From contig NW_014039856.1 of assembly GCF_001186125.1 (NCBI RefSeq), positions 13,710-49,139 of the forward strand: a stretch of DNA of 35,430 nt, in the 5' to 3' direction. Below the pieces are notes generated by a model. That model did not search any database. It worked only from the letters and a program-made list of their open reading frames with translations, and was not told where the DNA came from. The stretch's first letter is position 1; every line of letters starts with the position of its first letter. Of the stretch, positions 1,742-33,090 are shown piece by piece. This stretch comes from Sphaeroforma arctica JP610 (taxonomy: Eukaryota). Both the position numbers and the translations under genes were made by a program.

Positions 1742-2775
1742 TTGCTCCCGTGCCTTGGAAAGTGTGTTCAAAAAGGTCATACCGGAGCCAAGTGTACAGC
1801 CACCACTATCTCTTGTGGCGTTTGTTCCATACTCGACCACATCGATTCTGTCTGTTCCAAACAATTAAATAAAGCAAATTTCCCTTATATTTATCCCAAA
1901 GTAGTTTCGTTTCGCACATATTCCATCCCACGCTCCAACTCTAACCTCCTCATCGACGGCGGTGCCACTGTGAACCACTTACATACTAAATTCGAACACC
2001 TTGAGAATTTAGGGCACGGCTCATTTACCCTACAGCTCGCCGAGGATAGCACACGTCAGATTACCACTCGTGACACCCTTCAACCCCTCGTATACACGTA
2101 TGTCAGCAATCAAGTAAAACAACAGCTGGTCTCTCAGAACCAGCTCCAAAATACAGGGTTTACACTCAATTTTGCTGCCGATCGACAAGCTTGCCACCTA
2201 AGCTACGGCTCTCGCCAGCTCAACCTATCTCGTGCACAAGGGGACTACCGTCTCCACTACGGCCAGCTGCTTAGCGCCGCCTCTTCCTCGGCAACCACAA
2301 GCACCCTACAACCTGCACCTACTGTACCATCGCAACCACAGGTTGATATGGTTCATCCTTCAATATGGTTCTCTTACGGTACAACCACCTCCACAAGTTA
2401 CCACGGTTCATCCCCCAACACAGAAGACCGCCCCACCCCCACATGTACCCTTCTCAAGTCCACACACTCTTCCGGCCACCCCAGCCACCTCCAACAGGGT
2501 CCAAACCTACGACGAATACCATTGCAACCTAGGCCATAAGAGTTGCACCACGACTCTGAAGATGGCCACGAAAGATAAAGTTACTCTCATCCATCCTCCA
2601 TCGCCAGGCATAAACGCTGAAGAATGGATGCTGAACAGGACCAACTTTTCTCACGACAAGGGCCATCTCGACTATACACCCACTATCGACTTCTTCGCTT
2701 CCCCGAAGGCCGCACAACTACTCCGATTTGTTAGCCCCTACGGTGGAGGTGCATTCACCGACTGCTTCAGTTTCG
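1742..2775 (+). mobile_element. Ty1/Copia-like retrotransposon remnant: two gag zinc knuckles, protease, GAG-pre-integrase motif, then N-half of a DIRS-type adenine methyltransferase
   Basis: CVQKGHTGAKC and CGVCSILDHIDSVC (CCHC-like); LLIDGGATVNH (Copia-type D-x-G-A-x-x-H protease); YHCNLGH at ~2517-2537 in the overlapping frame; then EEWMLNRTNF...PTIDFFASPKAAQLLRFVSP...TDCFSF (2619-2775). Confidence 0.7.
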
Positions 2776-3290
2776 GGCTCCGCCACTTTAGACTCCATCC
2801 GCATCAAATGGGCCCACCTCGCTCTCGACGGCAACAGTTATGACAAATGGCTGTCCCTAATTACATATCTTCCTCGGCAAGTTCCAAGTTGACATCCCAG
2901 TCGGTACTCTACTTCAAATACATCTAGAAAGAGATCTTAGCTCACCAAAAGGCTACTCCAGTGGTCTCACGCACTCCGGGTCTCGATGGGGCTCGCGTCG
3001 AGCAAGCTGATACTTTCAGAAAGAAGACTATCGCCGATGGCACTTAGCACAAGGCCCGCACACGTCCCTTGAACTGAACGAGGATCCATAGGCAATTTCC
3101 TTCTATCTCTGCAAGACATATCGACACATGTCCTTCGAGATATCCAACACCATAACTTTAGAGATCTTCCAGACCTTCAAACGCAGTGATGAGGACACGA
3201 TTCGCGTCTGGTCCAAACGGGTCGTCCTGGTCGCGCGCGAAGCTGAACTCCAACACACCACCTTCTCACCGATCTTCATCCAAAGATGAT
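2776..3290 (+). pseudogene. Decayed Copia-type gag N-terminal (UBN2-like) fragment
   Basis: Manual translation: LALDGNSYDKW (L-x-G-x-x-Y-x-x-W), then across frameshifts and stops YLCKTYRHMSFEISNTITLEIFQTFKRSDEDTIRVWSKRVVLVAREAEL, matching the helical pattern of Copia gag. Confidence 0.5.
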
Positions 3291-4496
3291 CCTATCTCTT
3301 GTAACCTTCAACTACATTCGAGACTATACAGGCAGTACTTCATACATGCAGAGCATAATAAACAAGAAAGAGAGGGAAAAAAGATTACCCCCCTGTTCAA
3401 CGCCAAACACTTCAAACGAAACAATTTGATGTCCAAAGGTGGACATAGAATAGCAGCGAACCCTGATGCATTACCATCTCTTGTATAGAGTTTCAGTGGG
3501 ATACAGACTATATAATGAATAGAATAACGAAGTTACAAGCTGTCGAAGACGGCATCGTAAATGTATTTGTATATTAAACAAAGACGAGTTGTGCGGCAAG
3601 AATATAAGATTAAGGGAGGTCTTCAAGTGCCGTGTAGAAGTCAATACTACACCTCCACGCAGCATTCCCACAAAGAATCTCTTAAGTTATAACAATGTCT
3701 TCTGCTCGAATACATATGAGCACGAAATACTTTTTGAGCTTTGTCTAAAAATATCACAGCAGAACATTACAAAGCTTGTACCTTCGAATTTAGATACAAC
3801 CGTAGAGGAACCAAAGATACAAGAAAAAGGACGAGCAAAGCTGAGTTTGCACGCGTAGATAGAAATGTTTTACATCAGCCAGTTAATGACTACCACATCT
3901 ATCTCCCAATGTAAGTGCTCTTAACACATCTGTAAAAAAGCTCACGCTTATGAAGATGGAGATTGCTCACGACACATTAGTTTTGGTAAATGTAGTTGGT
4001 TGCTATGAGAAGTTGATCACCATCACACAGAGGAAAATCTCCATTAATAGACGTGACAAGTGTGAGAAGACCAACACCCATCACACCAAGGCCTGTGACA
4101 GCAAACCAGACATTAAGTTGTTATGAAAAGGTTACTGGGTTCAATCCCTGCAGTAAAAGTATGACGACTTATTAGATTAGCGTGTAATCGTAGCTGTATA
4201 CTGCAATAAAAAGAGTATTCTTGCAGCTGATGTTGGTTCTGAAATATCGTATATATCACACCGCTTTACTTTACAGAAAGATATTAAACGTAGAACACAG
4301 ACAACTCACCTTGTGCTATCAGAGAGAGGCACTAAAGTTACAGTCGTTAAAATCTTGCACAACAACCACGTAATTTACAGTGATTAAGATGCCACAAAGT
4401 AAATACGACATAATTGTTGGAATGAGCGACCTAATTACTTAGAATCAATCAGAAGATGATTGTTTGAAACCTTATATACCTCCATCTGTAAAAGTT

Positions 4497-5253
4497 TGAC
4501 TTACCAGGCTGACTATACAGTACCAATACGGTTATGCTAAAGAAATTACGTTAAATAAGTTAAATTGCAAAAATTAGGTTCAGCTTCAGACCTTTATAAT
4601 GAGCAAATGATTAGCGGATGTAAGACTGAGACTTTTGTCTATATAGTTTCGCTCTGATCACTCACTACGTTAGTCTAAATTTATCTGATGTCAGTATGTA
4701 TTTTATTCTATTAGATGCATAAAATTTCATTTCATGCATCGAAACAATCATCCAATCGCGATTACTAATAAAATAACTCAAGTCTATCTTAAGAAAAATA
4801 AAATAAAACCTAAAGCACCAAGCTGGTGCAGTTGAATGTCTGCACCTATACCCCATCACTGGTATCTAGCTCTCCATCCCATTGAAGGCATAGACTGACA
4901 CATCTGATAGGCTGGCTAGGAGGAGTCAATATTATGTCATACTTCTCAGCGGATTAACTTGCGCTGAGCGTATTTGGCAATACAACATGTGTCATCAGCC
5001 CATCATTGATTATACCCCAATATTATGGTGGGAAACATGTCACTAAAGAAAAAAACCACCAACAAGTTTACAGTAGAGTCTCCACTCTATATTGTATACG
5101 ATTGTATTTTCAAATATCTAAAAATAATGTTTGTTTGTTTGTTTGTATTTTTCAATTATTTGTTTATTATCCATTTTACAAATACCTACAATTACGCCAT
5201 AACATGTGCTTCTACTATTAAGAACACCGTTGTTTTCAAAACGCAGCCGAGGA
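4497..5253. other. ~755-bp unrelated insertion in the PR-RT linker of copy 1
   Basis: Homology to copy 3 stops after PYIPPS (~4497) and resumes at LISDVAGKIM (~5254); these are contiguous in copy 3 (PYKPPSDTVKALIPDFANKIM). No TIR or TSD recognised. Confidence 0.7.
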
Positions 5254-6526
5254 ATTAATTTCTGACGTCGCAGGTAAGATAATGAATTTTGTGCTTCTTA
5301 ACAAAACAAAATACTAACAATGACTGGGTGAAGTGGATATGCTAGTTTTGACTTAACCAAAGTAGGCATTTCAAAGCTAAAATGTCCTTAAAGAAGCGAT
5401 GTATCCTAGAGACATGACGCTGTAGTAAAGTAACATGTAGAGAAGTGGTTATCCGATGGGCCAATTGAAACTACTATCGACAAACCCCGGTCAATATAGC
5501 ACTGACGATTCGTTCAATACGGTCAAGGTATGCTTAGACACGGAGTTCATATAAAAACTCACAGTTTCCACCTACCTCGTATTAATAGCTATTAAAAGGA
5601 TGCAATAAGCTCCAATTTTTAGCACCAAAAATATATATGAATCACAACGTAAATACTTCATCGTTACTTGGGAATAGAAGCAATTATTGATTCAAAGGAG
5701 CCCCATTCGGCTTACACTTTATACCAGCATTCTTCCAGCAGGGTTGCTAAAATGACTAATGTGCAAGTATATGTAGATGACATAGTTGTCCTTTCTAAAG
5801 CAACAAGTGAACATGCTGCCATAGTACAATAAGATTCACAGCGACTCAACGAACAAACAACTTCTCAGATACTGTATATCAGGGGAAGGCACTAAAATCG
5901 ACCCCGGTAAGGTAGAACAACTCTTAGATTGGCGTATATCAAATATTGGAAGAGATATAAATTGCATAAGTAGTTTTGTAAACTACATCATTGACGGAGT
6001 TCCAAACCTGGCAGATTATTTGAACCTTTTTTTAACACAAATGCCATAAGGGCAAACTAGGACAGTTATGGACTAAAGAATGCGATGACGCATATAAAGC
6101 ATTAAAACACACAGTCCAACAAAATCGCCTAGTATAAGGATCAGTTGATGGGGTACATTTGATATAGCCACGAACGGTGTGTTAGACTTAGCCTTAGGAG
6201 GTATTCTCTATGGGGTTATAAATAACATACCTAGGCATGTACATTTTTTTAGTTGAGTAATAAATGCTTCACAGTTGAATTGCCCAACAGTAAAGCAAAA
6301 GCTTCTAGCTATATCATCATCTATGACAAAGTTAAAGATTTTACGGTGATGTCTGATCAGAAGCCTCTTCGATATATGAAAGAGATGAAGCCAGACTCTC
6401 AATTATTTAGTAGGTGGCATGATACAATATCAAATTTCACTTTGGTATTAAACACTTACCAAGGATACACAATCATTTACTAGATATGCTATCCAGGTTT
6501 GCACCAGACTTCCAATGTTTGTAAGA

Positions 6527-6920
6527 CGGCTCTTGGTCACCGATTGAAAACATAATCTACGATGGTAGTGCTAACCCATAAGTTATTTGAACCGTATACT
6601 ATAGATATGTTTGCTGCGCATCGTAATGAGGAGTTGGAAAGATTTACTACAGACATTAAATCATTCCACAGGAGGTGCATTTCCATTTCTAATCTCCAAA
6701 CATAACGCATGGGCTAACCCACCCTGGCAAGTTATTGCCCGACTACTAAATTTTGTTCATTTATACATGGCTAAAATAGCACTGTGTCGTTTACTACGGA
6801 AATCAGATCCGTAGCTTACAAAACTGATAAGTATATTATGAAGCGAGCCTATGTATTTGAATGAAGGAGTATATCTTCCTACATCACAGTACCAGGGACA
6901 TATCGTATTATGTCGTATAG
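6527..6920 (+). pseudogene. DNA N6-adenine methyltransferase domain (DIRS/Dam-like) of family A copy 1
   Basis: IDMFAAH 6601-6621, AWANPPW with NPPW at 6716-6727; frameshifts and stops present. Confidence 0.85.
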
Positions 6921-7913
6921 AAGCCCTCTATGTACGAGGAGACTTTCTGAAGCCTTTCTTAACAAGGCCAAAGAGTCGGAGATTTCACTCTCCATTAACT
7001 TAATCGTAAATCAGTTCAAAGACAAAACATCACTTTAAGTTCGTGCACAAGGAATACAATCTACTACCGATAACGCTGTTAAGAAGCGTCAATCCTGAGC
7101 TCAACCCTTGAAATAGTAATATATATAATCAGAGCCCGAAATCTTTGGGACACGCTTCTAAAGAAACTTATGAAAAACAATACCGAAGTATATACAGATA
7201 TAATGCAACTATTAAATAAGCCGAGTGCATATACTGTTACAAGCGCACTAATAACGCTCAGACAATATTAGTGCAGGGGTCTGATGCCGTTTTAAACTTA
7301 GAGAACACGTAGGCGGACTCTTAGCACTCTGCATTTGCTCTCGAAGAGCAGCATGTCTCATGCAAAACCATAAGCTGAAGCACCAGAATGTAGCAAAAGT
7401 CTTCACAGACGCCAAGCGCAATGGAATAGCACATCCTTAGCTAGTGACTTTAATAGATAAAGTATATCAGTCATGTGCAGACTGTGATTACAATCAGATC
7501 AGGCGCAATGGATTCTCGCCGCATAAAAGTGTGATAGAAAATGTCATCATTGATTTGGCCGACCTGCTAACGTTCGAGCACACGGGCGACCGCTACGTAT
7601 GTCACTTCTCCGATGTGGCGTCACGGTTTAACCCGTTAAATTTATTAAAAAAATGAGAGTACTCTGACCGTGGCAGAATTATGTTGCCGAGTCTTTGCTG
7701 ACCACGGGTGGCCAGGTATCATAGTTCTGATAACGGTAGCGTGTTCTGTGATGACGTAATGTAAACATCTTGTATCTTAAGTTTTCCACCTGAGGAACAT
7801 TGAATATACATTATGCTACTTAAGTGTTTCGACCCAATTTCATTTCTTGCTTTTTTTTTGTGTTTAAAATTAGCTTGAGCGGTGAGCAAGTAGCGTCTCA
7901 TGAACATCAAAGC

Positions 7914-8315
7914 TGAGTGGGGGCTGTGCAATAGCCAGGCCTGCATATTAGATTCTATACATATAAACGTTGCTTTAGGTAAACTAGGTTTACCAAATGG
8001 TTTCTAAAGGTTTTATTCATAAATTCCTTTTCTATTATTCAAATTAAATATTTGGATTGCCTATTAAAAGGCCTATTAATTTCCACTGATATATATTTGA
8101 GTACTTCAGTAGCGAAATGGCTTAACTGAAAATATGTTCTTAGGGACTAGTAGCCTTGCCAAGTTTTTCCTCCGAGTAGCCAACCAGATTGCCAGTCTGA
8201 TGTAGGCAAGCCGGCGATTCCTGATGCATGGCTAGTCATCGGTTAGTGCAATGGCTAGAGACTTCAGCAGTATACTCCTTTTCAATCTTTTTCCCAAAAG
8301 ATAGGATTTTTAAAG
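7914..8315 (+). repeat. Polypurine tract and 3' LTR of family A copy 1
   Basis: agctgagtgggggc followed by TGCAATAGCCAGGCC (7927), homologous to 29106 onward (tatttggat, attaaaaggcct, aagataggatttt blocks). Right end not resolved. Confidence 0.75.
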
Positions 8316-9434
8316 TAACAACTTCGCGCGGCGAAAACAATAATAATAGTTTTGTCAAGCACGACGATGAAAACATAAATAAAATCCTTTGGCGAATTCA
8401 GTGGTAAAGAAATACACATACTTACTCTCGTATGAACCATGGTTGCAAACGTTAGCTGCAATAAATATTGGTGCGTATTGCTATTAGCAAGATATTCAAA
8501 AGTATTCAACAGCTAATTGTTCACCTGATCGCACCAAAGAAGGACTAGATTTGCATTATAATGTAGCTCTCTATACCGACGTCTGTACAAAGTGAAAGAT
8601 TGAGTCACACGTATGTGTATTTAACGATCTATATTCAGCATCATTCAGGGAATACAAGAACTTTACAACTATCAAACACAATGTAATTTTCCGAATCGGA
8701 TATTGCTCAAGGGCGCTACGGTGTATCAACAGATAGTGGAATTCATAGTAGAGGAATGAAATGTGTGGAAATAAAATACGTTTTGTAGGTGGTTTTGGAT
8801 AAGAGTTGGCACAGATAATACTCATGTGTCATTTATATGACTAAAGGTCTGTCTGATAGCTAGGAGATAAAATCTTATGTACGTATGTACTCCCAGAAAA
8901 AAAACAGAACGGGCAGTTGCCATTTTCGCAACAACGTGCCACTGATGATAAATCAATAGCTCGCGTGGGAATATATATCGAGAGGAATATGAAGGAAAAT
9001 TTGATGCTACTCGACCGTCAATTCATTGCACGATCGGGTTATATCCCCGTCGGAATTCGACTTAGCCAACCATGGGATACATATACCACAAAGCTTCGGT
9101 ATCTCTTTGTTGGCAAAGCAAGCCTAGTACTATAGATCAGGACTTAACTTACATTGTGCCAAAGGCTATTGCAACGCATATCAATGACGAACTAGATACT
9201 AGTTGGTTTGGATAGCACATAATCCTAAATCAATCTAACTCACCTATAGTGGTGAGCGGAGACAGGGCGCGTTTATATGTGTGTATGATCACACAGTAAA
9301 TCTCTACTCATCCCTGTATAGCCTACAGTCAACTTTGTAACGAGTGCTTGGCATTCATCTTCCCCTTAGTTCTCTTTTTTCGTGTGTTCTTTCCATTTGT
9401 GGATCCAGTTGATACAATTCCTATCATACGTTCT

Positions 9435-11535
9435 TGTAGCATCTAGAGGGACCAGATAATCAAAAAGACAATACAAATCCTAAATCCGCAGGATTACCAA
9501 ATACTGAATTTTGGGATTCGTATACAAATATTAAGAACAAGATTCACGAGAAAGGCTATCACCCGTCATAATCGACAGCAGCCCCATTGTTACAATCGGT
9601 CCCTTGATAGACTCGAATAGATGTACACGTACGTTTTAATTAGGCTCGATGCACACTCATCATATGCCAAACTGAAACCAATAATGGACAAATCAGCGGC
9701 AACCATCGCAAGGACACTAGGTTCAATTCCAAAAAGAACAAATAAACTAGTACATTGAAGGGTATGTACCATATCTCAAGAACCAAATTCATAAGAAGGG
9801 CTATCATCCGATAGAATCCACGGACGCCGCATTTCACGACGATAAAATTCAAGTGGGCACTACCGGTCCCTTGATAGACTCGAATAGAGGTAACACGTAC
9901 ATTCTAGTAAGGCTCGATGTACACTCATCATAAAAAAAAAGATGAGACCAGTGATGGAGAAATCAGCGGCAACCGGCGCAAGAACGCTATTTCCAATCAT
10001 GTATGAACAGGGCTTCCCACAAGACATAGAAACGGAACAGGGCACCTAGTGTCCAGAGCATACCAATCTAGTACGTAATGGGAGCCAATGAGTGATAACA
10101 CAGAGACCTCACACCCTTATTAAAAGGAAACTCGTTGAACAAAATCCAAGCAATTGGTGTTCTACATTTTCCTCTCGTTCTAGTGGATCCCAACATAAAT
10201 TTATCAAAAAGGTATAGAACACTTCGGTTCAATATGTACTTTGGACGGAGATGAGACGAAACCACCTAGTTGATTTCCAAACATCAGTAGACGCACCTGG
10301 CACAAGAGCACCATGGGAATCGCGACTGGTAAATCTAAAAGAGTCGATCATACCAAAGCTAGACACGAATGCTGCGCAATACCTAAAGAAAATGCGCTCA
10401 ACGTATCACCGAAAATACCAAAAAGAAGTACGTACACTCCCAGGAAGGGAGCAATGTAATTGTTTGTTGTCAAGGTGAAATGAATAAAATGACAGCAACA
10501 TGGCGAAACATACAAAATAGTAGGCAAGGGGGCCAACGGGTATTTTGTTTGTAACCTTCACGAATCTAAAGCCTCAGAATATCCTAACTAGGTCAGTGAT
10601 GAAATAGTCGGACTAGTAAAGAAGGCCAATGCTTCGAAGGAATTTACTCCCAACAGCCGCATACAACCAGCTGAGGACGCACAATACAGATGGGGAGCGT
10701 ATCTGGACGTATGAAACAGACATCACAGAAGTTGATGTCTTTACACATTACCGGCAACGCACCGGACGCAAGCGAAGACAACCCCAATCGACGAAATCAA
10801 CAGCAACGAGCACTGATGAACGATCAGCGAGCAACAGGAAGTGCACGCTTAACCGAGTTTTACTGATACTGAAGAGCACTCCCACTTTTCTCACCTTGAA
10901 GCATGTTCCGCCCACAATCCAGAAGGATATGTACCAAGGACTCGGTTGTAGAACCATACACTGTTGAGATGCGTTTTCTCAAGTCAAGTTGATATCAACC
11001 GAGAGCACAGGTCAAGACTGTGCGTTGTTAAGAAATTCCATCATAAAAATAGTTTAATTAGGACTATATACGTATTAGAATAGATAATAGCGGCAAGTTT
11101 TTTAATCTTAAACCCCTAAGGGACAAGTTTTTCCATATACAAAACTCCAACTTCAAAAAAGTTCAGTACTGTAATATCCTACGCAGGCACAGAAGTACAT
11201 AGTAAGGGGAGTGTAGTAACTAGAGACCAGATTAGCAAAAAGCAATACAAAACTCACAACTGTGCTATTATCAATTATTGAGTTTTGGGGTCCGAATCCG
11301 ATATTCCTGATATTAGAGTCATCAGAAATTGAGTTGGATTACCGGTAGATGATACAGGGACACCGAGAGAGAAGCACTCAAGTAGAATCAGAGTCTAGTG
11401 TAGAAACACAAATTATAAAATGGAGCCTCAATGTGAGTCCTTCAGCCTAGGACTTTTACCTAGCTGAGACAATCGTACTTAAAGAAGAGGTCTATTGTTT
11501 CCTTTGGTCGTATCTTGTCAGTTGCTCTCAAACTT
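9435..11535 (+). mobile_element. Ty3/Gypsy family B remnant: LTR start, duplicated integrase N-half, integrase core/C-terminus, PPT, 3' LTR
   Basis: TGTAGCATCTAGAGGGACCAGATAATCAAAAAG (9435) vs TGTAGTAACTAGAGACCAGATTAGCAAAAAG (11212), the latter preceded by PPT AAGGGGAG (11204-11211). Translated GPLIDSNRGNTYILVRLD, KSAA, EQGFPQDIETEQG, a frameshifted AYQSST/NGANE, NMYFGR, and chromo-like DGERIWTYETD. Confidence 0.8.
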
Positions 11536-11539
11536 AACA

Positions 11540-13160
11540 TTCTGATACTGCTCTGATATACACACAGCCCATACGATTGTAGCAAGGACTAAATCCTTTC
11601 AGTTTATCAGCGGCCAGCCCTACTGAGTACGTACAAAAGCAATTACGAACAGATAGTACTGCCTTGTCGCCTGTACCATGGGAATTACCTACAATGAGTA
11701 CATAGATCACATTTAAAAATCTCATCACACAAACCTTAATACATCACCTCTCACACACATGAGCAACACCTCCTTGTTCTTTTCATCTAGAACCTACTGG
11801 CTACGTACAAAAGGGATCACTGACAGATAGTACCACATTGTCTCCCGTACCGGGATACATCTTTACCCGTAAAATACGTAGATCCCATTTTATAGTCTTA
11901 TCGCATAGACCATAGTACATCACACCCTTCACGCTCATGGGTAGTACCTTCTTGTTCTCTTCATCTAGAACCTACTGAATACGCTTAAAAAGAATCATTG
12001 TCAGATAATACTACCTTGTCGCCCGTCACCAGGATCCTTACCTATAATGAATACACAGATCACATTTATAAATCTCATCGCATAGACAATACACCACCAT
12101 TCACGTACACGAGCAGCATCTTCTCGTTCACTTCATGTAGGCAGTTGTAGTTGTAGTATAGTTTAAATCCACACTCCCACGAGTCTATTGCTCGCGAGCT
12201 CTCTGTGTATATCCGGACGCATCGAAGTTCTGTTTGTCTGTATTCGTAATGTTAGCTAACTTGTTAATTACAGTATAATCATATGAAAGAAATTCACACT
12301 TATTAAAGTGCAAGTGCACATCTTCCTCTATCTGTATACGTGAAGCCAACAGTGCCTTGGGCGCTACTAGTAATACATAGTACCTCTTCAAACACGCCAA
12401 ATAAGTACGCTATAGGATTGTTGTCTTCGTACTCTTTTGGTATCTTGATAGAATGTTCGCGTGAATATTGTATATGTTCGAACATAATTCTACGAAGTAA
12501 AGTTAACCATTTCCTTTTCGAATTCGATACAAGCGGTCCTAAACCGATATTGTCGCTCCATACTAGTGTTCACGGAAAGGCTGTGATATCATGCATATGT
12601 CCACTTATCCAATTTCTGACTTGCTTCGTATTCATGTCAAAAATGAGAGGGGATATCTTGGTGTGTGCCTGTTCGATAGTAAGTTACAGTAATATGATCT
12701 TTTGTTCGTGTACTATCTATAGAAAAAGTATGAATTGCTCGGCGAATGTACGGTATACTTGCTGTACAAAGAATATCAATTTAGTATAAATTGGTTTATC
12801 TAGATACGCATCTATTAATGCTTGGTTACTTTTGTGCAGCATCTGTAAACCTTTCAGCACACTGGCGGGCTGGTGTGACTGCTCTAACAGGTTGCACAAT
12901 TTACGTGACTGAATCTTAGTTTTGTTTCGGTAATAAGTCTTCGTCAATAGTGCTGCTATAAGAATTACTCTATCAACCCAACTACGCACGATGCTATGCG
13001 GAATACACTTAAGCTTCGTAGCCGAATCATCCAATACAATCTGGACGGCCGTGGGTGTGCGCTATGATACTTATAATACCTTTGCAAACCCAACTTGCCA
13101 ACGGTTGTCGATCACAAGATTAACACAGCCTAGCACTGTATAGTCGGTGTCATAGGCCAT
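11540..13160 (-). pseudogene. Decayed ORF of unknown function (~530 codons) with three C-terminal ~58-aa tandem repeats
   Basis: ATG at 13160 is in frame with track ORFs 13034-12717 and 12485-12303, separated by scattered stops. The repeat units translate similarly (LDEENKxVL...GTGDxVVLSV.D.FCT). Confidence 0.5.
11619..12140. repeat. Three diverged tandem units of ~170-180 bp
   Basis: Units start cctactg...tacg at ~11619, ~11792 and ~11971 and end ttgttct.ttcatctagaa; all share cagatagtac, ttgtcgcc.gt and agatcacattt blocks. Confidence 0.9.
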
Positions 13161-15341: not shown

Positions 15342-18300
15342 CTATGCCTTTTCAGCCTTAGGATCGACCCACAAATCGTCTACAACGTCGAAGTGGAGCT
15401 GGTTGTGAAACTCCAATTCATACATCTCATCAAAGCGTATATCGCATATGCGGCATATGTACTCATCCTCTTCTATCTCGGCCTCAGCCTGTGCCTGCCG
15501 CTCGGCACTTGCATATGCTCTGGGCGATACTTCCCGCCCATCCAGGTCCACCGTCACAGTTCCTTTTCTATTCCGACGACGCCGGCTACTCACTCGCATG
15601 CCATTCGCTCCCACTGCTCGCTGAGTAGATTCCTTTCCACTGCTTGACTCCTTATGCTTCTGCACGACCTTCACCTTGGCTTTTGCCACAGGCGCAACTC
15701 CAGCGCTCCCACTTGCAGTTTTACCGGCTTCAGAATTCGCCTGTTCACTACCTGTGTCTTTCGCTTGCGCATTCACATCGGCGGCTGATAACGTCTCGTG
15801 GGTCCCTACAAATTGAGCATCGGACGTCTCAGACGCGGTTTTGGTACCAGATGCTAGATCTTGTACTGACATCGGTATATCCGTCTGACCATGTGTGTCA
15901 CTGACCGGCTGAGCGGACTTCTGAGCAACCCTAGCCTCCGCTACATTGTCGGTAGCGGTGACCTGATCACTGAACGGGCACTTACTAGAGGCTTTCTTGC
16001 CATTCTTTCCCTTATCGCCACTTCTACGGCTGGATTTCTGGGTATGTGCCTTGGGTAGTGGTCTGACCTTTGGTTGTGGCCGGGGCAGTTGGTATAGTGC
16101 GTTGCCAGACCCATTTGCGGCCCGAATTGCCTGAGCCTTATCAGACCTCTTCTTCTGAGCATCAATTCCTAATGACGAGTCTTTCTGAGGCTCACTTCCT
16201 AACGACGAGTCTTTCTGAGCCTCATTCACCACTGCTGTTGTAGCCGTTTTGGGGTTTTTAGAACCGGGAGTATCCGAGTTAGTTTTACCTTGAACAGTTG
16301 TATGTGATACCTTCTCCATACCCGCAGACACTGCCTCCTGAACGTATGGTTGTACCTGGCGAGATGCATTTGCCCTGCGAGATGCTCTGGGCGACCTCTT
16401 TCTCCCCGCCGCGTGTGGTACACTGTTGGCCAGGTCACGCCCGTCAAATCTCGCTTGCCCAAGGTGTTTTTCAGTGTTAACTTTCTTGTCTGAAGCCTGT
16501 TGTACGGGAGCAGTAGCTGTTCCGTTGTCCACATTCTCTTTCGAGTTTCGACCGTCTGCTTGCCGTTTGCGACGGCTATCCACTCCATCTCTAAGATGTG
16601 GTTGTGTCTGTTGTTTGCTAGGACTGCTTGCGGCCCTCTTAGACTGCACTGTGGATGAGAGTGCCGTGTCTGTCTGCGTTTCCGCCACTATAACTTCTAT
16701 TGCGGTACCTACAGACGCCCTCGAATCACCTGCAGACATAGATACCTCAGCGCCATTGTGTCTATCAGGTAGGTCCATCGCACTCTCCAGTGTTTTACGG
16801 AGCCGCTTGCTACTACTATACCGAGCCGAGCCACTAACTTCGCTGTTTATATCGGCCGTCCTTCCTCGTTTCGCGCCACGACGGGTGGCCCTTGGACTGT
16901 ACTTATGGGCTGACACAGACACAGCTACCGTCGGTACCTCTGTCACAGGCCCATGTGTATCTCGTATCTCTCCCAGAGCTACCTCTTTGCTCGTGGGCTT
17001 CTCCAGCTCTGACTCGATACCAGTATTCACAGGCCCTTCCCCCGCCGCACTGGCATCAGCTCTAACATTCGGCGAACCCGAGTCACCGTCTACGTCCATA
17101 GCGGTAACACCTGTGGTCTCCCTAGACGTGCTCACCGTTTGACTATGCCGCTCAGTCTTCTCATCCGCCACAGCATCCCCACGCGACTGTACGGGTAATT
17201 TGGCTGCTTTCTTAGCAGCCTGTTTGGCCTTTCGAGTCTCTCCAGGCCTATTTGGCCTATTCGGCCGGTTTTGGAAGATCTGAGCGGCCTTCTCATCTGG
17301 CAGGGGTGCCGTAAGATCAATCTCAGGTGCAGCCCCGTGAGCTCGCGTGGTGCGGGGCTTGTATTTGGATTTGTGGTGTACCTCCTTTTCTACTACCGGT
17401 TGTGCTGGCACCGATTCTCCCACAACAGATGGAACTATCTTGTCCTCGACAGGTTGTGCTTGTGATTTCTTCTCCCGCTGCGCCTTCTCCTCTATGACTG
17501 GTTGTACCTTTTTCTCTACTTCTATCACGACCGGTGGTTGCTTCACTGCGACAAGTGGCGCTCGCGACTTTCCTGCAGCAGAAGGTACGGTGTCAGTGAT
17601 CGCCGGAGACACTCCATTCCCATACAACCCGCTCGATTTGGGCTTAGACAGTGCGCGCCTGTGTCTCATATCCACGTGTCCGCTTCCCTTTGTTATCCCG
17701 GCAGCCTTTCCCCCCTTCTCACTATTGTTGGGTGTGAGTGAACTCACACCACTCCCACCAGGCCCCGGGCTCAATTTGCGCCACCCAGGGCTCTTTTTCG
17801 GTGTCAGTGGATGTGCACTTTTTCCACCATATCCAGGGTTCCGGTTACCGGCATTGCGCAACCGCCCGGTAATTGCACTTCTAGCCGCTTCAGCGCGTGT
17901 CTGTCGGGGTTTGTACTTGCCTTCTGACTTATGGTTAACGTCTTCTCTGCCGTTTGCTTTTGTGGCTGTAGTGCTTATCGTCTTAGCATTGTGAACAACA
18001 GTGTGGTGGTCTGCATTGCCACTAGCGGGTCCACGAGTGTGTGTTTCCTGCACATGGTCTGCGGGAGCTTTCCCTTCCAATTCTCGTCCCGATGTGCGAG
18101 GCGGTCTCTCAGATTGCGATGTCACAGCCGCACCTTGACGCCGAGACGCACGCGTGGGCTGAGTACTGTTGCTATTGCGACTACCCCCTCCACGGCCGAA
18201 GTCTTCCTCTAAACGAGCCCCTTTCAAAATGCTGGCTCCTTCCATGATACTGGTATCCCCATCCTGGATATCGGCCATACCCATACCTTGGGTCACCTGA

Positions 18301-19376
18301 CCCCTGGTGTCAGATCCTCTCATAGTTCGTCGTGCGTTGATGGACGGAATACTCTCAGTGGTATAGGTATTCTGAGCTTCTCTGAGTTTGGCTGTTTCTG
18401 CAACGCGACCGCAACGCAGCGCACAGTTATCCTTGTGGCCATCTCGCCGCCAGTTGGTTCTCTGAAATAGAAATATTCATGGAGGAATATTTGGATAAGA
18501 ACACTGCATTGTCCATGGTACAGATATTAATGGATAGGATGATTGGGTAAGCACACTGAATTGCGAGATACTACCTGTACTCGAGCTTTGCGTGTAGGAC
18601 TTTGGCTGAGCACAATAGAATATATGAGCAAGCTGGAGCAAGTGTAACGAGATCAGTGCTATAAGTAGAACACGCACCTGATAAAAGCATATCTACGCAA
18701 AAGAAATAAATTGGTTGTAAGTGCAATCTAACCGGGACTGCACGAATAATAAATTTCCTAGCATTAATATTGACTCCACACGTGTGCCCAAAAAAATCTC
18801 ATATAAACGATATCTGTCTGCATGTTTAACTAAGCAGAGGTTCGCGGGTGGCAAAAGCGTAGCAGAATGCATCCGATGCCATGGGGTGGGAGTACATGTG
18901 AACAACAGATATCACCAGTCAAAATCATACAGGCACACTTACAGTGTACCTATAGATTCAAGATCGGTAACGAAACCGTATATATCATACAAGAATGGAA
19001 AAGTAAAACATATAAAACCTATGATATGAAGAAGTGAGTACCCCAATATACTCATTTCAGCATGCGGGTAAACACAGGGGCCTTTGGCACAGGTACAAGC
19101 TACGCTGATAGAAACTTGTATATTCAATATATGCGAATGAGTCGACAAATACGAGAAGCACACAAGAACAATCCGTGGCACATGAGAAAATGAAAATACT
19201 CCTGTTTCCATAGCCTGGAGACAGGGCGCCTTAACGGGGAGACAAGCTTCATCGCACATTATAAATAGAATTCAAGGACTCTCTCGCGTACATGGAATCA
19301 TTGAAGCAGTGTGTGCCTACGAGGACGCACGTGAATTTTGAGACTATACACTTCAAGAGGTAGCTGATGAGAAGAT

Positions 19377-22225: not shown

Positions 22226-23845
22226 TCACCTCATTGGCTTCTTGGCTAGATAAAAGAACATCGGTGTGAACAGTTTTTGTTCCCCACCGGCAACAAGACC
22301 ATGCGCTGCCGTTTCGAGTATGGCAGCTGTGCGCCCGGTGCCCTAATCGTACATTGAACGCGGGTAATCAATTGTAATCAGTAGCTGACAATAGCCAAAC
22401 TCAATATCGATAAACATACCAGCCATACCTACTCGCGGCTACTCTCAGGTAAAAAGCATACCTTTAAGTATATAGGCTACAATTTGCACAGAAAAAGGAT
22501 TAGATGTGTATTGGGGGTCACCACTAGCAATAGCTGCATACCTCAGGGGCGAGACCGAGCTTCTCCATGGACCAAATCGAGTACTTCGTAACGAACCTTC
22601 CAATCATTGATGATCTGAAATTACTCAAAGAGTAATAGCTACCTTGAAAGGGCTCATACCATGGTATGGTGGCCGTATCCGCAAGATCAGCAAATTCGAT
22701 AATCTGTGTCAACCAAAGTAGGATAAATGTGTGGGGAAGATTGAACGCTGAATACTCGCATTATTTCTTCATAGACTAATCAAAGAAATCTTCTATAGGT
22801 AAACACTCTTATTAAAATATACACATACCTCAAAACCAGCCTTCTTCAGAGCTTCTAGACATTCCTTCGTCGTGAGAACATCAGGCAATCCATTGCCAAT
22901 CTCTATGTCAGATTTGATCTTGACGTGTTCGATATTGTCGGGATCAAATCTGTGCGTCATGCACCAGTCGTATCCACCAAAGCACTAGGGATGGGGCACA
23001 AATCAAAAGCCAACAAGACAGAAGTAAATATTTTTCGGTGCTTGTTAACTAATGGAAATTTACATCCCAGAATAACTTAAGGCGATCTATCTTATAAAGA
23101 CGCACGTTGAAGCAGAGTATTGACATTAAGAGTCCATTGCATATGTCTTACCTGACCGGGCTTCAGTAAGCGAAAAATCTCAGCATAACAGGCAAACTTA
23201 TCGGGGGCGTGACAGGTGGCTTCAATCTGGTAGATGGCGTCGAAGGAGCAATTGGGCATGGGAACATGCATAAAGTCTGCCTTCATGAAATCGCAGCTTT
23301 TATCATGACCCGATTTGACATTATAGGCGGTGCCACGCTGAATCTACAAAAAAAGAGTTCAACAATGATTACATATCCGAGATTATGAACAGCTATAAAC
23401 TTTAGTGCAAATAGTGTGAGCATCGCATTTTGGAGTCAAACAAACATTCTGTAGAGTCACAACTTCTTGTTCTACTCACCTGGTATGCATTGTTGTTTAA
23501 ACCAGTGATGCTAGCGCCGGAGAATGATGCGATCTCACGTAACGGGCCACCAACGCCACAGCCGACATCTAGAACCTTCATACCTGGCTCCAGTCTCAAT
23601 TTATGTGCCAAGTAATGTTCGTGGCGTTTTATGCTTTCATTGTGTGTTTCGCCTATCAACCGATGCGCAAAATGGAAACTCGTGCCCCAACCCCATTCAT
23701 AGAAGTCAGTGGCTAGATCATAATACTTGTTAACCATGTCGGCATACATATCGCGGCGTGCTTGTATGTCACCGCCATGTTCAGTGTGGTATTTTTCGTA
23801 CGCACCAATTTTTTCACTGTACTCTTCAGATACGTGTCGACACAT
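22226..23845 (-). CDS. SMT: Sterol 24-C-methyltransferase (SMT/ERG6 family), ~330 aa; exons 23845-23480, 23343-23152, 22984-22829, 22703-22542, 22342-22226
   Basis: [71 protein letters not shown]. Four GT-AG introns join in frame. A short additional 5' exon is possible (acceptor-like tatatag just before the ATG). Confidence 0.95.
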
Positions 23846-24645
23846 TGTGCTATATATTTAGTGCAATTAAAGGGAATCGATTCCTTAAAGTTTTCTATTA
23901 AAAATGAGCGGGCAAATGTTGTCGCAGACTTCTCTTGTACATATGTCGAAAAGAATGAAGATTCACTGAATTGCAATTTCAAGGTGCTCAGCCGCTCAAG
24001 GCCTTTCGGCTTACAGTTGTATTTATGTACCCGCTGCCGCTGGTGCGGGGAAACTACTCTCACGTAGAGAAGGCCCGGTGCTATTATTGCTCTCGAATTC
24101 TCGATATATAAATATATTTAGATTATAGTGCGGGCGTAGGCCGTATGGACTACGGTGGCATCATCCGAAGCAAAAAAGCATAAATATCGTACCATCGTGC
24201 GTTTTGATGACCCACTGCCGGTTCTAATATGATTGGTTAGTGTTATCTGGGCGCCCAAAATGTCTTAAAACCCCACGTAATCAACTATTCCTGGACAAAA
24301 TGACAGAATTTAAAACAAATAGCAATATTATTCTCAGATTTTAGAAATTCAGAAGGCTATGAAAATTGAAATTATTTTATACCATAGCCAAGAGAGACCT
24401 AGCTAGAACATAGTCTTCTGTTCTATTTTCAGAAGGCTATGATATTACATACAATGATTTTTTTGTGTAATTTTCCGAAGTGCAAATAATTGCCGCCAAT
24501 GAAATTATTTTATATCTTCCATAGATGCTTGACTGTTGTTTTTACAATTCAAAAATTGGTTTTATTCTGTTAAACTTTAGAAGGCTATGATTCTGTTTTA
24601 TAAATTGGTTTGTTGAAAAAAGAGAAAACAATAGAAAAAGAAAAT

Positions 24646-24878: not shown

Positions 24879-25452
24879 ATGGCATTTACAGCCCGGACTT
24901 TGCCGGGATATGGCAGAGGGTAGCCGTCCCGTTGTTGTAATTTCACAATCATAACGGGAGCCCGCCCAAATAGCTTGTACGATAAGTGACTGTAAAATAA
25001 CTTGCAAATAATTTTACAACGGATATTGTGTATTTGTGTGTATATAGGCTCAGTTACGCATGTGCTTGCCCCCTTTTCATATGAAGACGGCTACATACCT
25101 TTTGTTGTTATGAACTTCGTCTTCGGGAGTGACTGGGACATCGAGCCAGTTGGATGTAGATTGTGTAAACAGGATTACATTCCAGTAGAAGAGCTGAGTG
25201 CATACCATCTATGTCGTCTGATATGGCATTACTCTTGTCACGTATCTTGTGGAAAAGGTCATGAGTTTTCTCAGGATAAAAGAGACCCTAGGCTATGGAA
25301 TAGTGTACGGTTGGGATGCTGTATGTTGGATGTAAAGCTAAGGCACAGATTATACAGATTATTTGCAGGCTGTACATACAGTAATACGGACGTACATCGA
25401 TCACCACGAGATATTGAATCTCTGATCAAGAAGACCAAAATTGCGAAGGCAG
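24879..25452 (+). pseudogene. Non-Gypsy Cys-rich coding remnant (degenerate PHD-like finger) fused in frame to family A pol
   Basis: GCRLC...AYHLCRLIWHYSC...LWNSVRLGC follows PHD spacing with two Cys replaced. In-frame ATG at 24879 is followed by stops. Homology to family A begins only at 25453. Confidence 0.4.
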
Positions 25453-26680
25453 ATTTTGCGGACAAAATCATGGATCTGATTCTAGTAAATAAGAAGATAA
25501 GGATCACAGATTGGGCAAAATACCGCTTTAACGACGGATATATCAGCCTTGACTTAACCAAGGTAGACTTTACGCAGTTAAAGTGTCCCTCAAGGAACTA
25601 TGTATCCTGGAGACACGAGGCTGTGGTAAAAGATCAAGTTGAGAAATGGCTAGCAGATGGTGTGATAGAAATTAACTATCAACAGACGCTAGTTAACTTG
25701 GCGCTGCTAGCCGTAGACCAACATAACTCTGACGGATCGTTTTAAAAAGTCAGAGTATGTTTAGATATGAGCCCGATAAATAAATTATTCGACACATAGC
25801 TTTCACTTACCTCGTATTAAAGAGCTACTGCGAAGGATGGAAGGTGCTACAGTGTTTACAACTATAGACCTTACACAAGGATACCATCAAATGCAGGTAT
25901 ATGAACCCCACCGTAAATACTTTAGCTTTACGTGGAAAGGCAAACATTACCGGTTCAGAGGTGCACCTTTCGGGTTGCACTCTTTACCAGCATTCTTCCA
26001 ACAAGTAATGGAAGAAATGTTTACAGACATGCCTAACGTGCAAGTCTATATAGATGACATTGCCATCTTTTCTAAGACTAAGGGCGAACATGCCGCATTA
26101 GTCAGACGAGTCCTTAAGAGACTCAACGAACAAAACTTCACGATTAACGAGAAGAAATGCCACCTCGCAATGAGCGAAATACATCTCTTTGGCTACCGTA
26201 TATCTAGGGAAGGTATTAAAATCGACCCCGGTAAGGTGGAACACCAGTTAGATTGGCGAACCCTAACTACAGGAAGAGATGGCAAGGACCAGTCGTTGGC
26301 GTGCCGTTTGAAATAGCAACGGACGTCTCCGACTTAGCCCTAGGAGGAGTAATATATCAGGTTATAGATAACAAACCTAGATATATACAATTCTTTTGTC
26401 GAGCGATGAATGCTTCACAGTTCAATTATCCAACTGTTGAACAAGAGCTATTAGCCATAGTGACAGCTCTAACACACTTCCGAGATTACGTATACGGAAC
26501 AGCATTTACGCTGATGTGTGATCAGAAATCTTTTCAATATATGAAAGAGATGAAACCCGACTCGCAATTACTGAGTCGCTGGCATGATACAATATCAAAG
26601 TTTCATTTTGATATAAAACATCTGCCAGGTATACATAACCATTTACCGGATATATTATCACGCTTCGTACCAGACTTTTA

Positions 26681-27130
26681 ATAAATCCGCACGTGAGTTA
26701 CTAGCCACTGACTGGAAGTGCAATCCCAGGTGGTTTGAACTGGCTCAAAAGATATATGGGCCACATACCATAGATATGTTTGCTGCACATCATACTGCAC
26801 AACTGTCGAATTACAGAACTTTAAATCATCCTATGGGAGACGCCTTTCAAATAGACCTCTCCCAACATAATGCGTGGGCTAATCCACCATGGCAGTTTAT
26901 TGCCCAGCTATTAAATTATGTTCATATACATAAAGCTACCATCACGTTGTGTTGCCCATTACGGAGTTAAGATCCATGGCTCAATAAATTGATCAGCATG
27001 ATTCAATGCGAGCCAATATATTTAGATAGGGAAGTAGATACTTTCTTATATCAGGGTACCCGAGCCGTACAGAAGACGCCATGGAGACATACTTTTATAT
27101 GTCGTATAGGTTTCATTGGAACAACCAAAT
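26681..27130 (+). pseudogene. DNA N6-adenine methyltransferase domain (DIRS/Dam-like) of family A copy 2
   Basis: One frame: ATDWKCNPRWFELAQKIYGPHTIDMFAAHHTAQLSNY...GDAFQIDLSQHNAWANPPWQFIAQLLNYV...TLCCPLRS*DPWLNKLISM...PWRHTFICRI; NPPW at 26881-26892. Confidence 0.9.
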
Positions 27131-27636
27131 GAACCCCTTCTGAGACCTTCCTTAACAAGGTCAAAGAATCAGAGATTCCACTCTCTACCCAATTGAACGT
27201 TAAGCAGTTCAAAGGCAACACAGCATTTAACGTATGTGCACAAGAAATACAATCTACTAACGACACTGTTAAGAAGCGTCAGTCTCTAGCTAGGACTCTG
27301 TTTAATAACATAAAGCCTAAGCCCGAGGTCTTTCAAACCTCATTTTTAAAGGGATTAGTGAAAGACAATCCTGAAGCGTATACACCTATAATGCGACTAT
27401 TTAATAAGTCAGGTGTATCCAACGCACATGAGCGCGATTCTGACACTCATGCAAAAGCAGGACAGGAGTCTGAAAATACTACAGACTTAGAGACCACGCA
27501 AATGGATTCTCAACACCCTACCTTTATTCTGGAAGAGTGGAAGGATAAAAACATTATTGCTTGGCTAAAGCAACAGCATAAGCTGAAGCACCAGAACGTA
27601 GTAGAAGCACTCAAAGATGCTAAGCGACATGGGATC

Positions 27637-27656
27637 NNNNNNNNNNNNNNNNNNNN
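27637..27656. other. Assembly gap (20 N)
   Basis: Run of n; followed by ~390 bp of AT-rich sequence with no integrase similarity before integrase resumes at ~28043. Confidence 1.
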
Positions 27657-29105
27657 TAAGTACTAAGTGTTCATGACCACATGCCTAATTTGTAGATAGA
27701 CATAATAACGTAAGTCACGTTAATACATTAGCTGATATAAATAAAGTTCCATCTGAAGAAAAGTTAAAAAAGAAAAATACTTATTGGATTTTGGAGATTG
27801 GCGGGAGGACCAAAATCTATAAGTAGTAGTTCGGAGATTATAAAATTTAGTTTATAATATCCTACATCTACTAATGTCTCAAATAGGTCCAAGTAGATGA
27901 GTCATACCAAATACTCAGGCTATTGGAGCCATCAAAGTGAATTTAGAACACTTTGGGAATATTGGAAAAAGAGCTTGTATTAAATTATTTAAAATACAAA
28001 TAAAAACCAATGTATTATCTCAATTGATCTTGATATTTTAGACTGACCGGAGGCCGTATTTCTACATAGCCATATAAGCCGCAAACGCAAGGCGCGAATG
28101 AAACGCGCCATAGAAGACTTAAGTTCTTTTTGCGTACAGCATTAACGGATGATGCATATGATTGGCCGTACCACCGTCAGTGGGTGCAAACACAGATGGA
28201 CGTATGTGCTGATCCGGTTACAGAAACTACACCCGCTCACTATTTTCGTGGCAGATATAGTGAGTTACAAATCCCTTTTAACAAGGACGAACCCAATCAC
28301 CATGAGTTACCATGGTTAGAGAAGGTCCAACGTATTTATAGCGTTGTATATCCTTGCTTGCGAGAAATACGCAATATAGCCTTATTAAAAAGGCAAAAGC
28401 GTTGGAACACTACCAAGAAGATAGCAGAGTATCAGGTTGGTAACAGAGTTAACATCCGGCAACGTAATTCCGATACTACTGTATTAACTTCTAAACGGGA
28501 ACGTACGAATGGTTCTAGTGCGCTTAATATAGGCACAAGTCGTATTCCGACTACAGAGATTATACTCGCAAGAAGACATGACTCTAATGACCCTCTTGAT
28601 CGTTCTGAATTTAAAAACATTATATGGAGAACGGATAAGGGAGGCTATACATACTATCGTACACGCTTTATAGACGGTACAATAGCTAAGTTGACTTCAG
28701 ATACTTTCGATAACCAAGACTATTTAAAAGCCTTTAATCGAAAATGACGTAAACGCCTGCATAAGTCACAAGCTGAAAAATATAGCATGTTTCCATCGTC
28801 TGAAGGAACGGAAGTTAAAACTTATTCGCCTACAGCATTTATCCCGAGCCTTAATGCTCATCCTTCATATGTGCTTAAGACACTGAAGCGTAAGGAACGT
28901 CCAGTCGACCACCACGGACCTACTGGACCTAAGCCCAAAACTCACAGGGTAACCGAGAACACTTAACTTCTCCGCCTGAGAAACACTAACTATATGTTAT
29001 GCTACTTAATGTTTCGACTCGATTTTTTCTTTCTCGTTTTTTGACTCATAATCAGCTTGAGTGAGCAACCTGCTTCTCTTGGGTCTCAAAGCTGGGTGGG
29101 GGCTG

Positions 29106-29545
29106 TGTAATAAGCCGGGCCTCCACATTAGACTCTTATGTATAAACGTAATTTTCAGCAGTACGCAAATTATAAACGTACTCTTAATAGTACGAAGAAC
29201 TTAAGTCTCCTAAATGTGCTCTTAATAGCACGAGGAACTTAAGTTTCCTAAAATGGCTTTTAATGGTTTTATTAATTAATACCTTTTCCATTAACATATC
29301 AGATATTTGGATGAGGCCATTAAAAGGCCTCAGTAAAATACCAAACATAAAAGAGTTGGTCTAGTTCTATTAATTGAGCTTTATTTACTTTCAAAACATA
29401 TCTGAATACTTCGGTGGCGAGATGGCTCAACCGAATATAGGTTTCTATGGACTATTAACGCTACCTAGAGTTATTGGTTAAGACAATAACTAAAGACGTC
29501 AAGAGTAATTTTTCTTTTCTTCTAAAGATAGGATTTTACGAGTCT
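29106..29545 (+). repeat. 3' LTR of family A copy 2, with internal ~38-bp tandem repeat
   Basis: Starts TGTAATAAGCCGGGCC just after the PPT; near-identical to the reverse complement of 31341-31072; unit gtactcttaatagtacgaggaacttaagtttcctaaat x2. Right end unresolved. Confidence 0.85.
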
Positions 29546-31341: not shown

Positions 31342-31452
31342 CTCGTAATTACTGAGTCGCTGGCATGATACAATATCAAAGTTTCATTTTGATATAAAAC
31401 ATCTGCCAGGAATACATAACCATTTACCGGATATGTTATCACGCTTCGTACC
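31342..31452 (+). mobile_element. ~110-bp fragment of family A RNase H C-terminus
   Basis: Matches ~26561-26671 with 3 mismatches by eye. Confidence 0.9.
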
Positions 31453-32425: not shown

Positions 32426-33090
32426 TAGACATAGCCTTCTGTTCAATTTAGAAGGCTAGGGCTTGTGCATAGCCCTCTAAATTACATATAAAGGGCCATG
32501 GCTCATGGCCTGTGCCTGAGACTCTGAGGCACTGTCCGACAGCCACTGTCCAAACCCCATTTGCTGATCTGGCACCCACTACGAGTGAAACGCCACTGAC
32601 ACGTATCATGACACTCCAGTCTCCAAGCACGGCGTACTGCGTAGTGAACGGTCAGTCGTATTTAAAATCGGCGCAGAGGCACAGAGGGCCAGAGGCTTAG
32701 TGGCATTTTTAAATACTTTTGATTTAAACTCTGAACTCTGAAGTCAGTCAGTCACTTGTGTGACAGGCTGGAACCTGGAGCTGGTTACTCTGCTTTTTTT
32801 AATTTTTTGCTTTTCTATTTTTATTTTTCGTCACGTATGTGTGTAAATATTTACAGTATGACATTGATTTTACAAAACCAAATCATTTATATTATTTTTT
32901 ACAGAGCCTCCAAATTCCAAATGAACTTCATAATATTCATTCAATTAAATAAATAGTAATTTTTTTTTACATCACTAATATGACGGTCAAAGACATCCAA
33001 AAGACAGCCAAAAGGAGGGCTGTCTGATAGTCGCTGAACATAGTTTGTGTAAACAGCGTATACAGCCAAAGCGGGGGAAACAATTATTTG

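Follow-up and report, generated by a model that had tools for sequence, protein, structure and literature searches.

Dam-type adenine methyltransferase domains have been described in Ty3/Gypsy elements, including those of Sphaeroforma arctica (Fernandez-Moreno et al., May 2026; bioRxiv 10.64898/2026.05.21.726589). According to the main text of this preprint, there are five DAM-LTR lineages, the ichthyosporean one being 'conventional Ty3/Gypsy-like', and capture of Dam by Gypsy elements is linked to hosts in which 6mA is activating. More 6mA and more transcription are reported there for the Gypsy DAM-LTRs of S. arctica, and it is proposed that Dam marks an intermediate and that host AMT1 keeps the mark; eukaryotic Dams expressed in E. 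coli gave no gain of 6mA. The words 'copia' and 'ty1' occur 0 times in the preprint's main text, the RT tree was built on PF00078 (the Copia RT being PF07727), 46.1% of Dams were left without a TE label, and the figures and supplements may show more architectures (bioRxiv 10.64898/2026.05.21.726589). A Copia-Dam family could fall among these unlabelled Dams. The relevant sections of earlier accounts place Dam in DIRS only (PMC3266345, PMC5890265), where the role of the methyltransferase domain has been called a long-standing unknown (PMC3266345). A literature search covering titles and abstract openings, with subscription papers and preprint supplements outside its scope, returned no report of a Copia element with Dam.

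We analysed a stretch of 35,430 nucleotides from S. arctica JP610 (contig NW_014039856.1, positions 13,710 to 49,139 of the forward strand; hereafter the window), in which part of an element shares features with several of these systems. Like the ichthyosporean DAM-LTRs, its family combines a DIRS-type Dam with the Pol of an integrase-using LTR element and comes from the same organism, which supplies seven of the nine protein matches described below; unlike them, it runs from protease to integrase (Copia order) with no RT between, and its Dam appears to lie within the HHCC zinc-finger motif of the integrase. With DIRS1-like elements it shares the same kind of Dam-like methyltransferase (MT; W.L, P.IDxFA, Q.xF and NP motif), but those elements are organized as RT-RH-MT plus a tyrosine recombinase, with the MT after RNase H, whereas here the MT follows the integrase HH (PMC3266345). 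CopiaMBD of arthropods is likewise a Copia family with an epigenetic domain in Pol beside the integrase, although its MBD reads 5mC and sits next to INT, whereas the present domain is a predicted adenine methyltransferase-type writer within the zinc finger (PMC6673714). Ordinary Ty1/Copia (Pseudoviridae) Pol has in common with this family the Gag knuckle, Pol_BBD-type protease, GAG-pre-integrase HH, CxxC-x2-GK, integrase core and Copia order, but has about 160 fewer residues between HH and CC than P0003, one of the predicted proteins of the family.

The window copy

A preliminary description had read positions 1742 to 2775 as a Copia-like element continuing in one frame into a DIRS-type methyltransferase. 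Every motif that it named was found at about the place given, but the single frame did not hold: knuckles and protease lie in ORF 1718-2539 (frame 2) and YHCNLGH to DCF (the latter at 2760-2768) in ORF 2202-2843 (frame 3), continuity in a single frame being limited to the passage from HH into Dam (frame 3). The following features were assigned from the window sequence:

1751..1855, + strand, frame 2: two Gag zinc knuckles, the first degenerate (CVQKGH at 1763, CSILDH at 1823)
1943..2272, + strand, frame 2: Copia-type aspartic protease (LLIDGGATVNH, with IDGGATVNH at 1952-1978)
2273..2504, + strand: Pro/Thr-rich linker, delimited by ORF bounds
2505..2612, + strand, frame 3: HH part of the zinc-binding motif of the integrase, TYDEYHCNLGH (YHCNLGH at 2517-2537), and the helix after it
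2613..2762, + strand, in frame with HH: N-terminal half of a DIRS-type Dam adenine methyltransferase domain (EEWMLNRTNF at 2619-2648, PTIDFFAS at 2679-2702, AAQLLRFVSP at 2709-2738)
2764..3295, + strand, out of frame with the cut Dam: likely 5' part of gag from a second copy of the same family

The second knuckle is a perfect CX2CX4HX4C (1814-1855), and the knuckles match a Copia gag profile with 2/500 shuffles as high, while Pfam gave no match on them. The protease stretch is the best match to the Copia profile across all six frames of the window and is 42% identical to P0003. The shift from frame 2 to frame 3 falls within the linker, at about 2273-2504, and a comparable low-complexity linker is present in the relatives P0001-P0004. 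Downstream, the HH half aligns with the Copia WHxRxGH position, and the Dam half is colinear with residues 186-235 of P0003, within that protein's match to PF05869; over about 50 columns it is 42-47% identical to family copies, 52% to the DIRS-like protein P0008 and 40% to family A, a Gypsy family of the window. As the preliminary description had it, the domain is cut before an NPP-type motif. Homology to Dam extends no further than 2762, which leaves the 'CF' of DCF outside it. A Pfam scan of ORFs 1718-2539 and 2202-2843 gave no relevant family, no Pfam Copia family matched the window or its relatives directly, and an Atlas search with the window piece returned nothing. Two other assignments were dropped, namely YHCNLGH as the CC half with THSSGH as HH, since relatives have H-x3-GH at the YHCNLGH place, and FYLCKTYRHMSFEI as a third knuckle, which was unsupported.

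The window copy is dead, being frameshifted, cut at 2762 and joined to the gag of a second copy. The sequence after 2762 matches the N-terminus of P0002 (11/19 residues, E 0.001), which in turn fits the start of a Copia gag (2/500 shuffles as high); the translation of window 2764-3340 against Copia-type Gag, with 100/500 shuffles as high, was not significant. Among the matches listed, two paralogous contigs carry 2792-2855 and 2907-3147 upstream of knuckles or protease, and the end of a paralogous contig before 2792 agrees with 2762-2791 in 19/30 letters, counted by eye. Dam copies 80% alike are absent from these listed matches, a negative of no weight, as a filter also hid the window's own contig in 3/4 runs. 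Most likely, then, what follows the cut is the gag of the same family and not DIRS sequence, and the fusion of Dam to gag probably arose by deletion between neighbouring copies, a circular permutation being a possible alternative. No direct repeats were found around 1742-3300, the window copy being a fragment, and none of the window's 25 longest inverted repeats lies at the element.

The window DNA is not an assembly artefact. Fifteen of the 24 sequencing runs listed contain 99% of its words (10 of the 15 from three studies that are not marked as its possible source), and the junction is real, single contigs bridging 2762-2765 without an indel in all four runs compared. In two related organisms, D and E, the segment 2440-2920 is uninterrupted and shows 19 and 22 differences, respectively, across its 481 positions. 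Based on 40 of the 42 difference rows, comparison with D and E gave 12 replacement and 5 silent changes in the HH-Dam part (pN/pS 0.69, p 0.33 for an excess of silent changes) and 10 replacement changes, 2 silent changes and one stop in the gag part; the second His is changed in organism D. These changes, small in number, look neutral; the copy is an old relic common to these organisms, and nothing points to its domestication. At window 3328-3407 there is a 78-nt purine-rich stretch, in place of which organism D has 5 letters.

Relatives of the window copy and the position of Dam

A phmmer search with window 2487-2840 against 1.84 billion proteins yielded nine matches at E<=0.001, seven of them S. 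arctica hypothetical proteins with separate gene numbers. The remaining two were a metagenome protein, which without Pfam confirmation we take to be an RNase H end followed by an MT start (DIRS), and a spurious match to a bacterial repeat protein, P0006, which was removed. TYD.xHxxxGH, the helix and the start of Dam occur in 6 of the 9 matches, all from S. arctica and 38-55% identical, and three of the nine also have the protease. The preliminary description had allowed for a chance fusion of Copia and DIRS relics, in which the junction would be unique and its relatives ordinary DIRS elements; instead, the HH-Dam join recurs, with the MT after the HH helix in six relatives and the window and not directly after RNase H as in DIRS1-like elements. 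Identity among copies over the Dam half is 38-67%, from which we infer that the family is old and diverse. The join is thus present in diverged copies of Copia order, of which one has a complete Dam domain and another has part of a Copia integrase core:

P0003 (SARC_09551), gene model: protease, linker, HH, whole Dam domain, CxxC
P0005 (SARC_09016), gene model: protease, HH, start of Dam to HGNPG, C-terminal half of a Copia integrase core

Dam in P0003 matches PF05869 over residues 189-296 (E 1.2e-5; 25.5 bits, below the curated cut-off of 28.1) and the phrog_111 DNA methyltransferase at E 0.002; the domain reads LYGNPIW and is followed by CRVCVEGKMKAKH, the CC half of the zinc-binding motif. 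The nearest structures to the Atlas model of residues 144-386 include Dam/RT-RH clusters, with TM up to 0.70 and taken as a lead only, and the Atlas search with P0003 likewise gave only leads below 0.9, in which Pol_BBD was carried by 23-70% and gag_pre-integrs by 34-93% of members. A PDB search with P0003 gave 0 matches, and its AlphaFold model (mean pLDDT 37, usable at about residues 141-180 only) is too poor to show a contact between HH and CC.

As Copia references we used eukaryotic Copia elements contaminating prokaryote assemblies (at least 121 loci, 29 long ORFs), of which all five checked carried RVT_2, rve, Pol_BBD and gag_pre-integrs. A profile was built from 12 reference polyproteins and matches were compared with those of 100 column shuffles. 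Against this profile, the only one compared, the family protease matched with a probability of 73% (E 3e-5, 99 columns, 0/100 shuffles), while HH (3/100 shuffles as high) and CC (1/100) gave modest matches in the right order. From the second His to the first Cys there are 195 residues in P0003 versus 20-40 in 12/12 reference Copias. Residues 199-255 of P0005 matched the Copia integrase core at 15.9 bits (best shuffle 3.4, 0/500), a stretch that does not include the two Asp, and gave no match to the Gypsy integrase of family A. CC and the integrase core were each found in one of seven copies, in different proteins, and both P0003 and P0005 are automatic gene models in which splicing predictions may have brought separate pieces together, and P0005 can be seen to skip parts. 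The order and spacing in P0003, together with the core in P0005, place Dam amid the zinc-finger motif of the integrase, where it separates HH from CC; in the predicted proteins the domain is thus inside HHCC and not at the element's end. We are highly confident that this is a real family architecture.

With respect to class, P0003, P0004, P0005 and the window all run from protease through the linker to HH with no RT between, which is the Ty1/Copia order and not that of Ty3/Gypsy elements, where an RVT_1 RT precedes the integrase. The protease is of the Copia type (Pol_BBD) by profile-profile comparison; HH is found in six relatives and the window and CC in P0003 only, the motif being split by Dam; the C-terminal half of a Copia-type DDE core is in the P0005 gene model; and, as regards a Copia-type Gag, the knuckle and the P0002 N-terminus each match with 2/500 shuffles as high but window 2764-3340 does not match significantly. 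Homology to the PF05869 Dam is seen in P0003, below the cut-off, to which the window is linked. No RVT_2 RT, RNase H, LTR or primer site was found in the window or linked to any copy found, and Pfam matched no DIRS1-like tyrosine recombinase in the ORFs scanned around the element. That the family is a true Ty1/Copia lineage with RVT_2 and LTRs is likely. It would work like a DAM-LTR and yet belongs to neither the Gypsy lineage nor DIRS, and it passes the Copia tests of order, protease, HHCC motif and integrase core.

Searches for further relatives gave little. Longer ones were absent from word-indexed protein searches, which is weak evidence, and a search at near length gave only P0003 itself; pattern matches in metagenome scans were confirmed in 0/66 and 0/93 cases; viral contigs contained nothing for the Copia RT motif, P0008 or the DIRS MT motif; and Dam was absent from the 121 Copia-motif loci listed (one match, E 0.055) and from the 5/5 assemblies behind them. 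Within the family, the IDxFA of the Dam, which resembles motif I, is retained together with further residues of the fold, and across five copies conservation is higher in the columns that P0008 and family A have in common than in the others (0.81 vs 0.65, p 0.016; 15/45 columns), a pattern that fits selection on the Dam fold during the spread of the family. The canonical NPP triplet occurs in no copy, P0003 having NPIW and P0005 NPG, and both copies are possibly decayed.

Family A and the origin of Dam

The window also contains two decayed copies of family A, at 25000-29300 (+) and 5200-8070 (+), with the Ty3/Gypsy order RT-RH-Dam-spacer-integrase. They have Pfam matches to RVT_1, RT_RNaseH and Dam, are 64-67% identical in DNA and fit the published ichthyosporean DAM-LTR. 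The spacer, which separates Dam from the zinc-finger region of the integrase by about 150 residues (27133-27636 (+), and near 6945-7430 in the other copy), is kept in both copies, with stretches 77-79% identical, and had no Pfam match. A third, inverted and partial copy at 29592-31342 (-) includes a gag-like ORF in which Cys/His motifs occur (30344-31084), a 291-nt inverted duplicate of 25452-25742 at 94% identity, and LTR-like repeats in common with 29105-29292.

The parallel that the preliminary description drew between the window methyltransferase and that of family A (26701-26967; PF05869 E 1e-4) is weak when the two are compared directly, with 14/39 residues and a tblastn E of 1.5, or a BLASTP E of 0.014 as a pair; 9/1000 shuffles score as high. 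It becomes firm by way of P0003, whose match to the window has an E of 6e-20 and which itself carries PF05869. A profile score of 43 bits for the window, obtained against P0008 and family A together, was circular and not counted. The other two points of this comparison stood, as blastn found no DNA likeness to family A and the GC content is higher, at 0.50-0.51 vs 0.41.

Dam might instead have been acquired from family A, the Gypsy DAM-LTR of the host, or from a donor common to both, a reading that bears on origin and is compatible with the explanation that we prefer below. The two occur in the same host as neighbouring relics, identity between the window Dam half and family A is 40%, and a Dam tree (8 rows x 55 columns, with no DIRS reference set in it) had no starred branch and so no supported grouping. 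P0003, however, is only 24% identical to the family A Dam over 124 residues, other copies are 27-30% identical to family A vs 29-36% to P0008 (which was found with the window, so that this side is biased), and the insertion site in Pol differs; we consider such a link rather doubtful. An independent capture is plausible and would fit the differing insertion site and the low identity to family A. For the host-wide selection for TE-encoded 6mA suggested in the preliminary description, outside support comes from the Gypsy family only (bioRxiv 10.64898/2026.05.21.726589).

Possible role of the integrase-borne Dam

The best explanation overall, and one that we hold to be moderately probable, is that the window contains a decayed copy of a multi-copy family of Copia order with Dam in the integrase zinc finger, that is, with an integrase-borne methyltransferase. 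Copia Pol is cut by its own protease into PR, IN and RT-RH, and IN remains bound to the cDNA ends. Release of Dam would split the zinc finger, and Dam therefore probably stays part of IN. The mature integrase would thus likely carry Dam in the particle and on the cDNA ends, where it would methylate adenines on the cDNA or the RNA-DNA intermediate around the time of integration; host AMT1 would then keep the 6mA mark and the copy transcribed, as proposed for Gypsy DAM-LTRs. The missing NPP triplet, the lack of a 6mA gain in E. coli and a structure model that shows no closed finger speak against this marking model and the better-kept fold residues for it; we give an even chance that Dam is active in the living family. 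The fuller scenario, in which a Ty1/Copia lineage took a DIRS Dam independently of the same host's Gypsy DAM-LTRs, grafted it into the zinc finger and writes activating 6mA at integration, is a tentative one, to which we give somewhat less than an even chance.

The main rival is a targeting role for a catalytically dead Dam, the architecture being real and the domain binding DNA or SAM as a tether, by which integration would be directed, for instance to 6mA-marked open chromatin. The only two copies reaching the catalytic motif have NPIW and NPG instead of NPP, eukaryotic Dams were without activity in E. coli (bioRxiv 10.64898/2026.05.21.726589), and a place inside the integrase suits targeting, for which CopiaMBD is a precedent (PMC6673714). 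Both motifs, however, come from decayed copies, IDxFA and other fold residues are retained, and the triplet of P0003 is flanked by aromatic residues as in active Dams (bioRxiv 10.64898/2026.05.21.726589); a dead Dam with this role is, in our view, unlikely. Less probable still is that a DIRS fragment landed in one Copia copy by chance and broke its zinc finger, the chimera then spreading non-autonomously with a Dam that has no role. All copies found are indeed broken or internally deleted, with none linked to an RT, and an insertion within HHCC would normally be harmful. Against this improbable course of events, the predicted P0003 reads through from protease to CC at length, its Dam being clean and flanked by neither RNase H nor recombinase, and copies only 38-67% identical have kept the HH and the Dam fold residues, which a passenger would not need.

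It might also be supposed that the join exists at the window locus alone, through an assembly error or a single deletion fusing Copia and DIRS relics. The window copy is rearranged and does have a real, unique fusion at 2762-2764, but this fusion joins Dam to gag and not Copia to Dam, the HH-Dam join occurs in 6/9 matches, and contigs of 4/4 runs bridge the place, which refutes a unique join.

If the integrase-borne methyltransferase that we prefer is borne out, a Copia-order Dam family would add another capture in this host group, by a superfamily on which the main text of the preprint is silent (bioRxiv 10.64898/2026.05.21.726589). It would allow a within-genome comparison of Copia elements with and without Dam, and would show that a complete extra domain can be accommodated within the HHCC motif of the integrase. 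The place inside the integrase would point to when and where the enzyme acts, namely in the pre-integration complex, and would offer IN-Dam as one protein that can be tested, isolated Dams having given no signal.

Several other observations were made along the window and in the reference set. A degraded integrase-like relic, identified by eye, lies at 9400-10500 (+) and contains a 130-nt internal duplication (9597-9727 / 9864-9997), without a Pfam match. Three diverged direct repeats of about 176 nt at 11619-12140 fall below the threshold of Tandem Repeats Finder. A 1044-residue low-complexity ORF at 15342-18476 (-) has a C2H2-like motif at its end (CRICDIRFDEMYELEFHNQLH) and no Pfam match, and a 646-residue ORF at 33031-34971 (+) has several hydrophobic stretches and only a weak ZIP match (E 0.018). 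Eukaryotic Copia contigs were present as contamination in many prokaryote species-representative assemblies, with at least 121 motif matches, the 5/5 checked being Copia. Finally, 23402-23857 (-) is an exon of a SAM-dependent methyltransferase, with CMAS and Methyltransf matches, which we presume to resemble sterol 24-C-methyltransferase.
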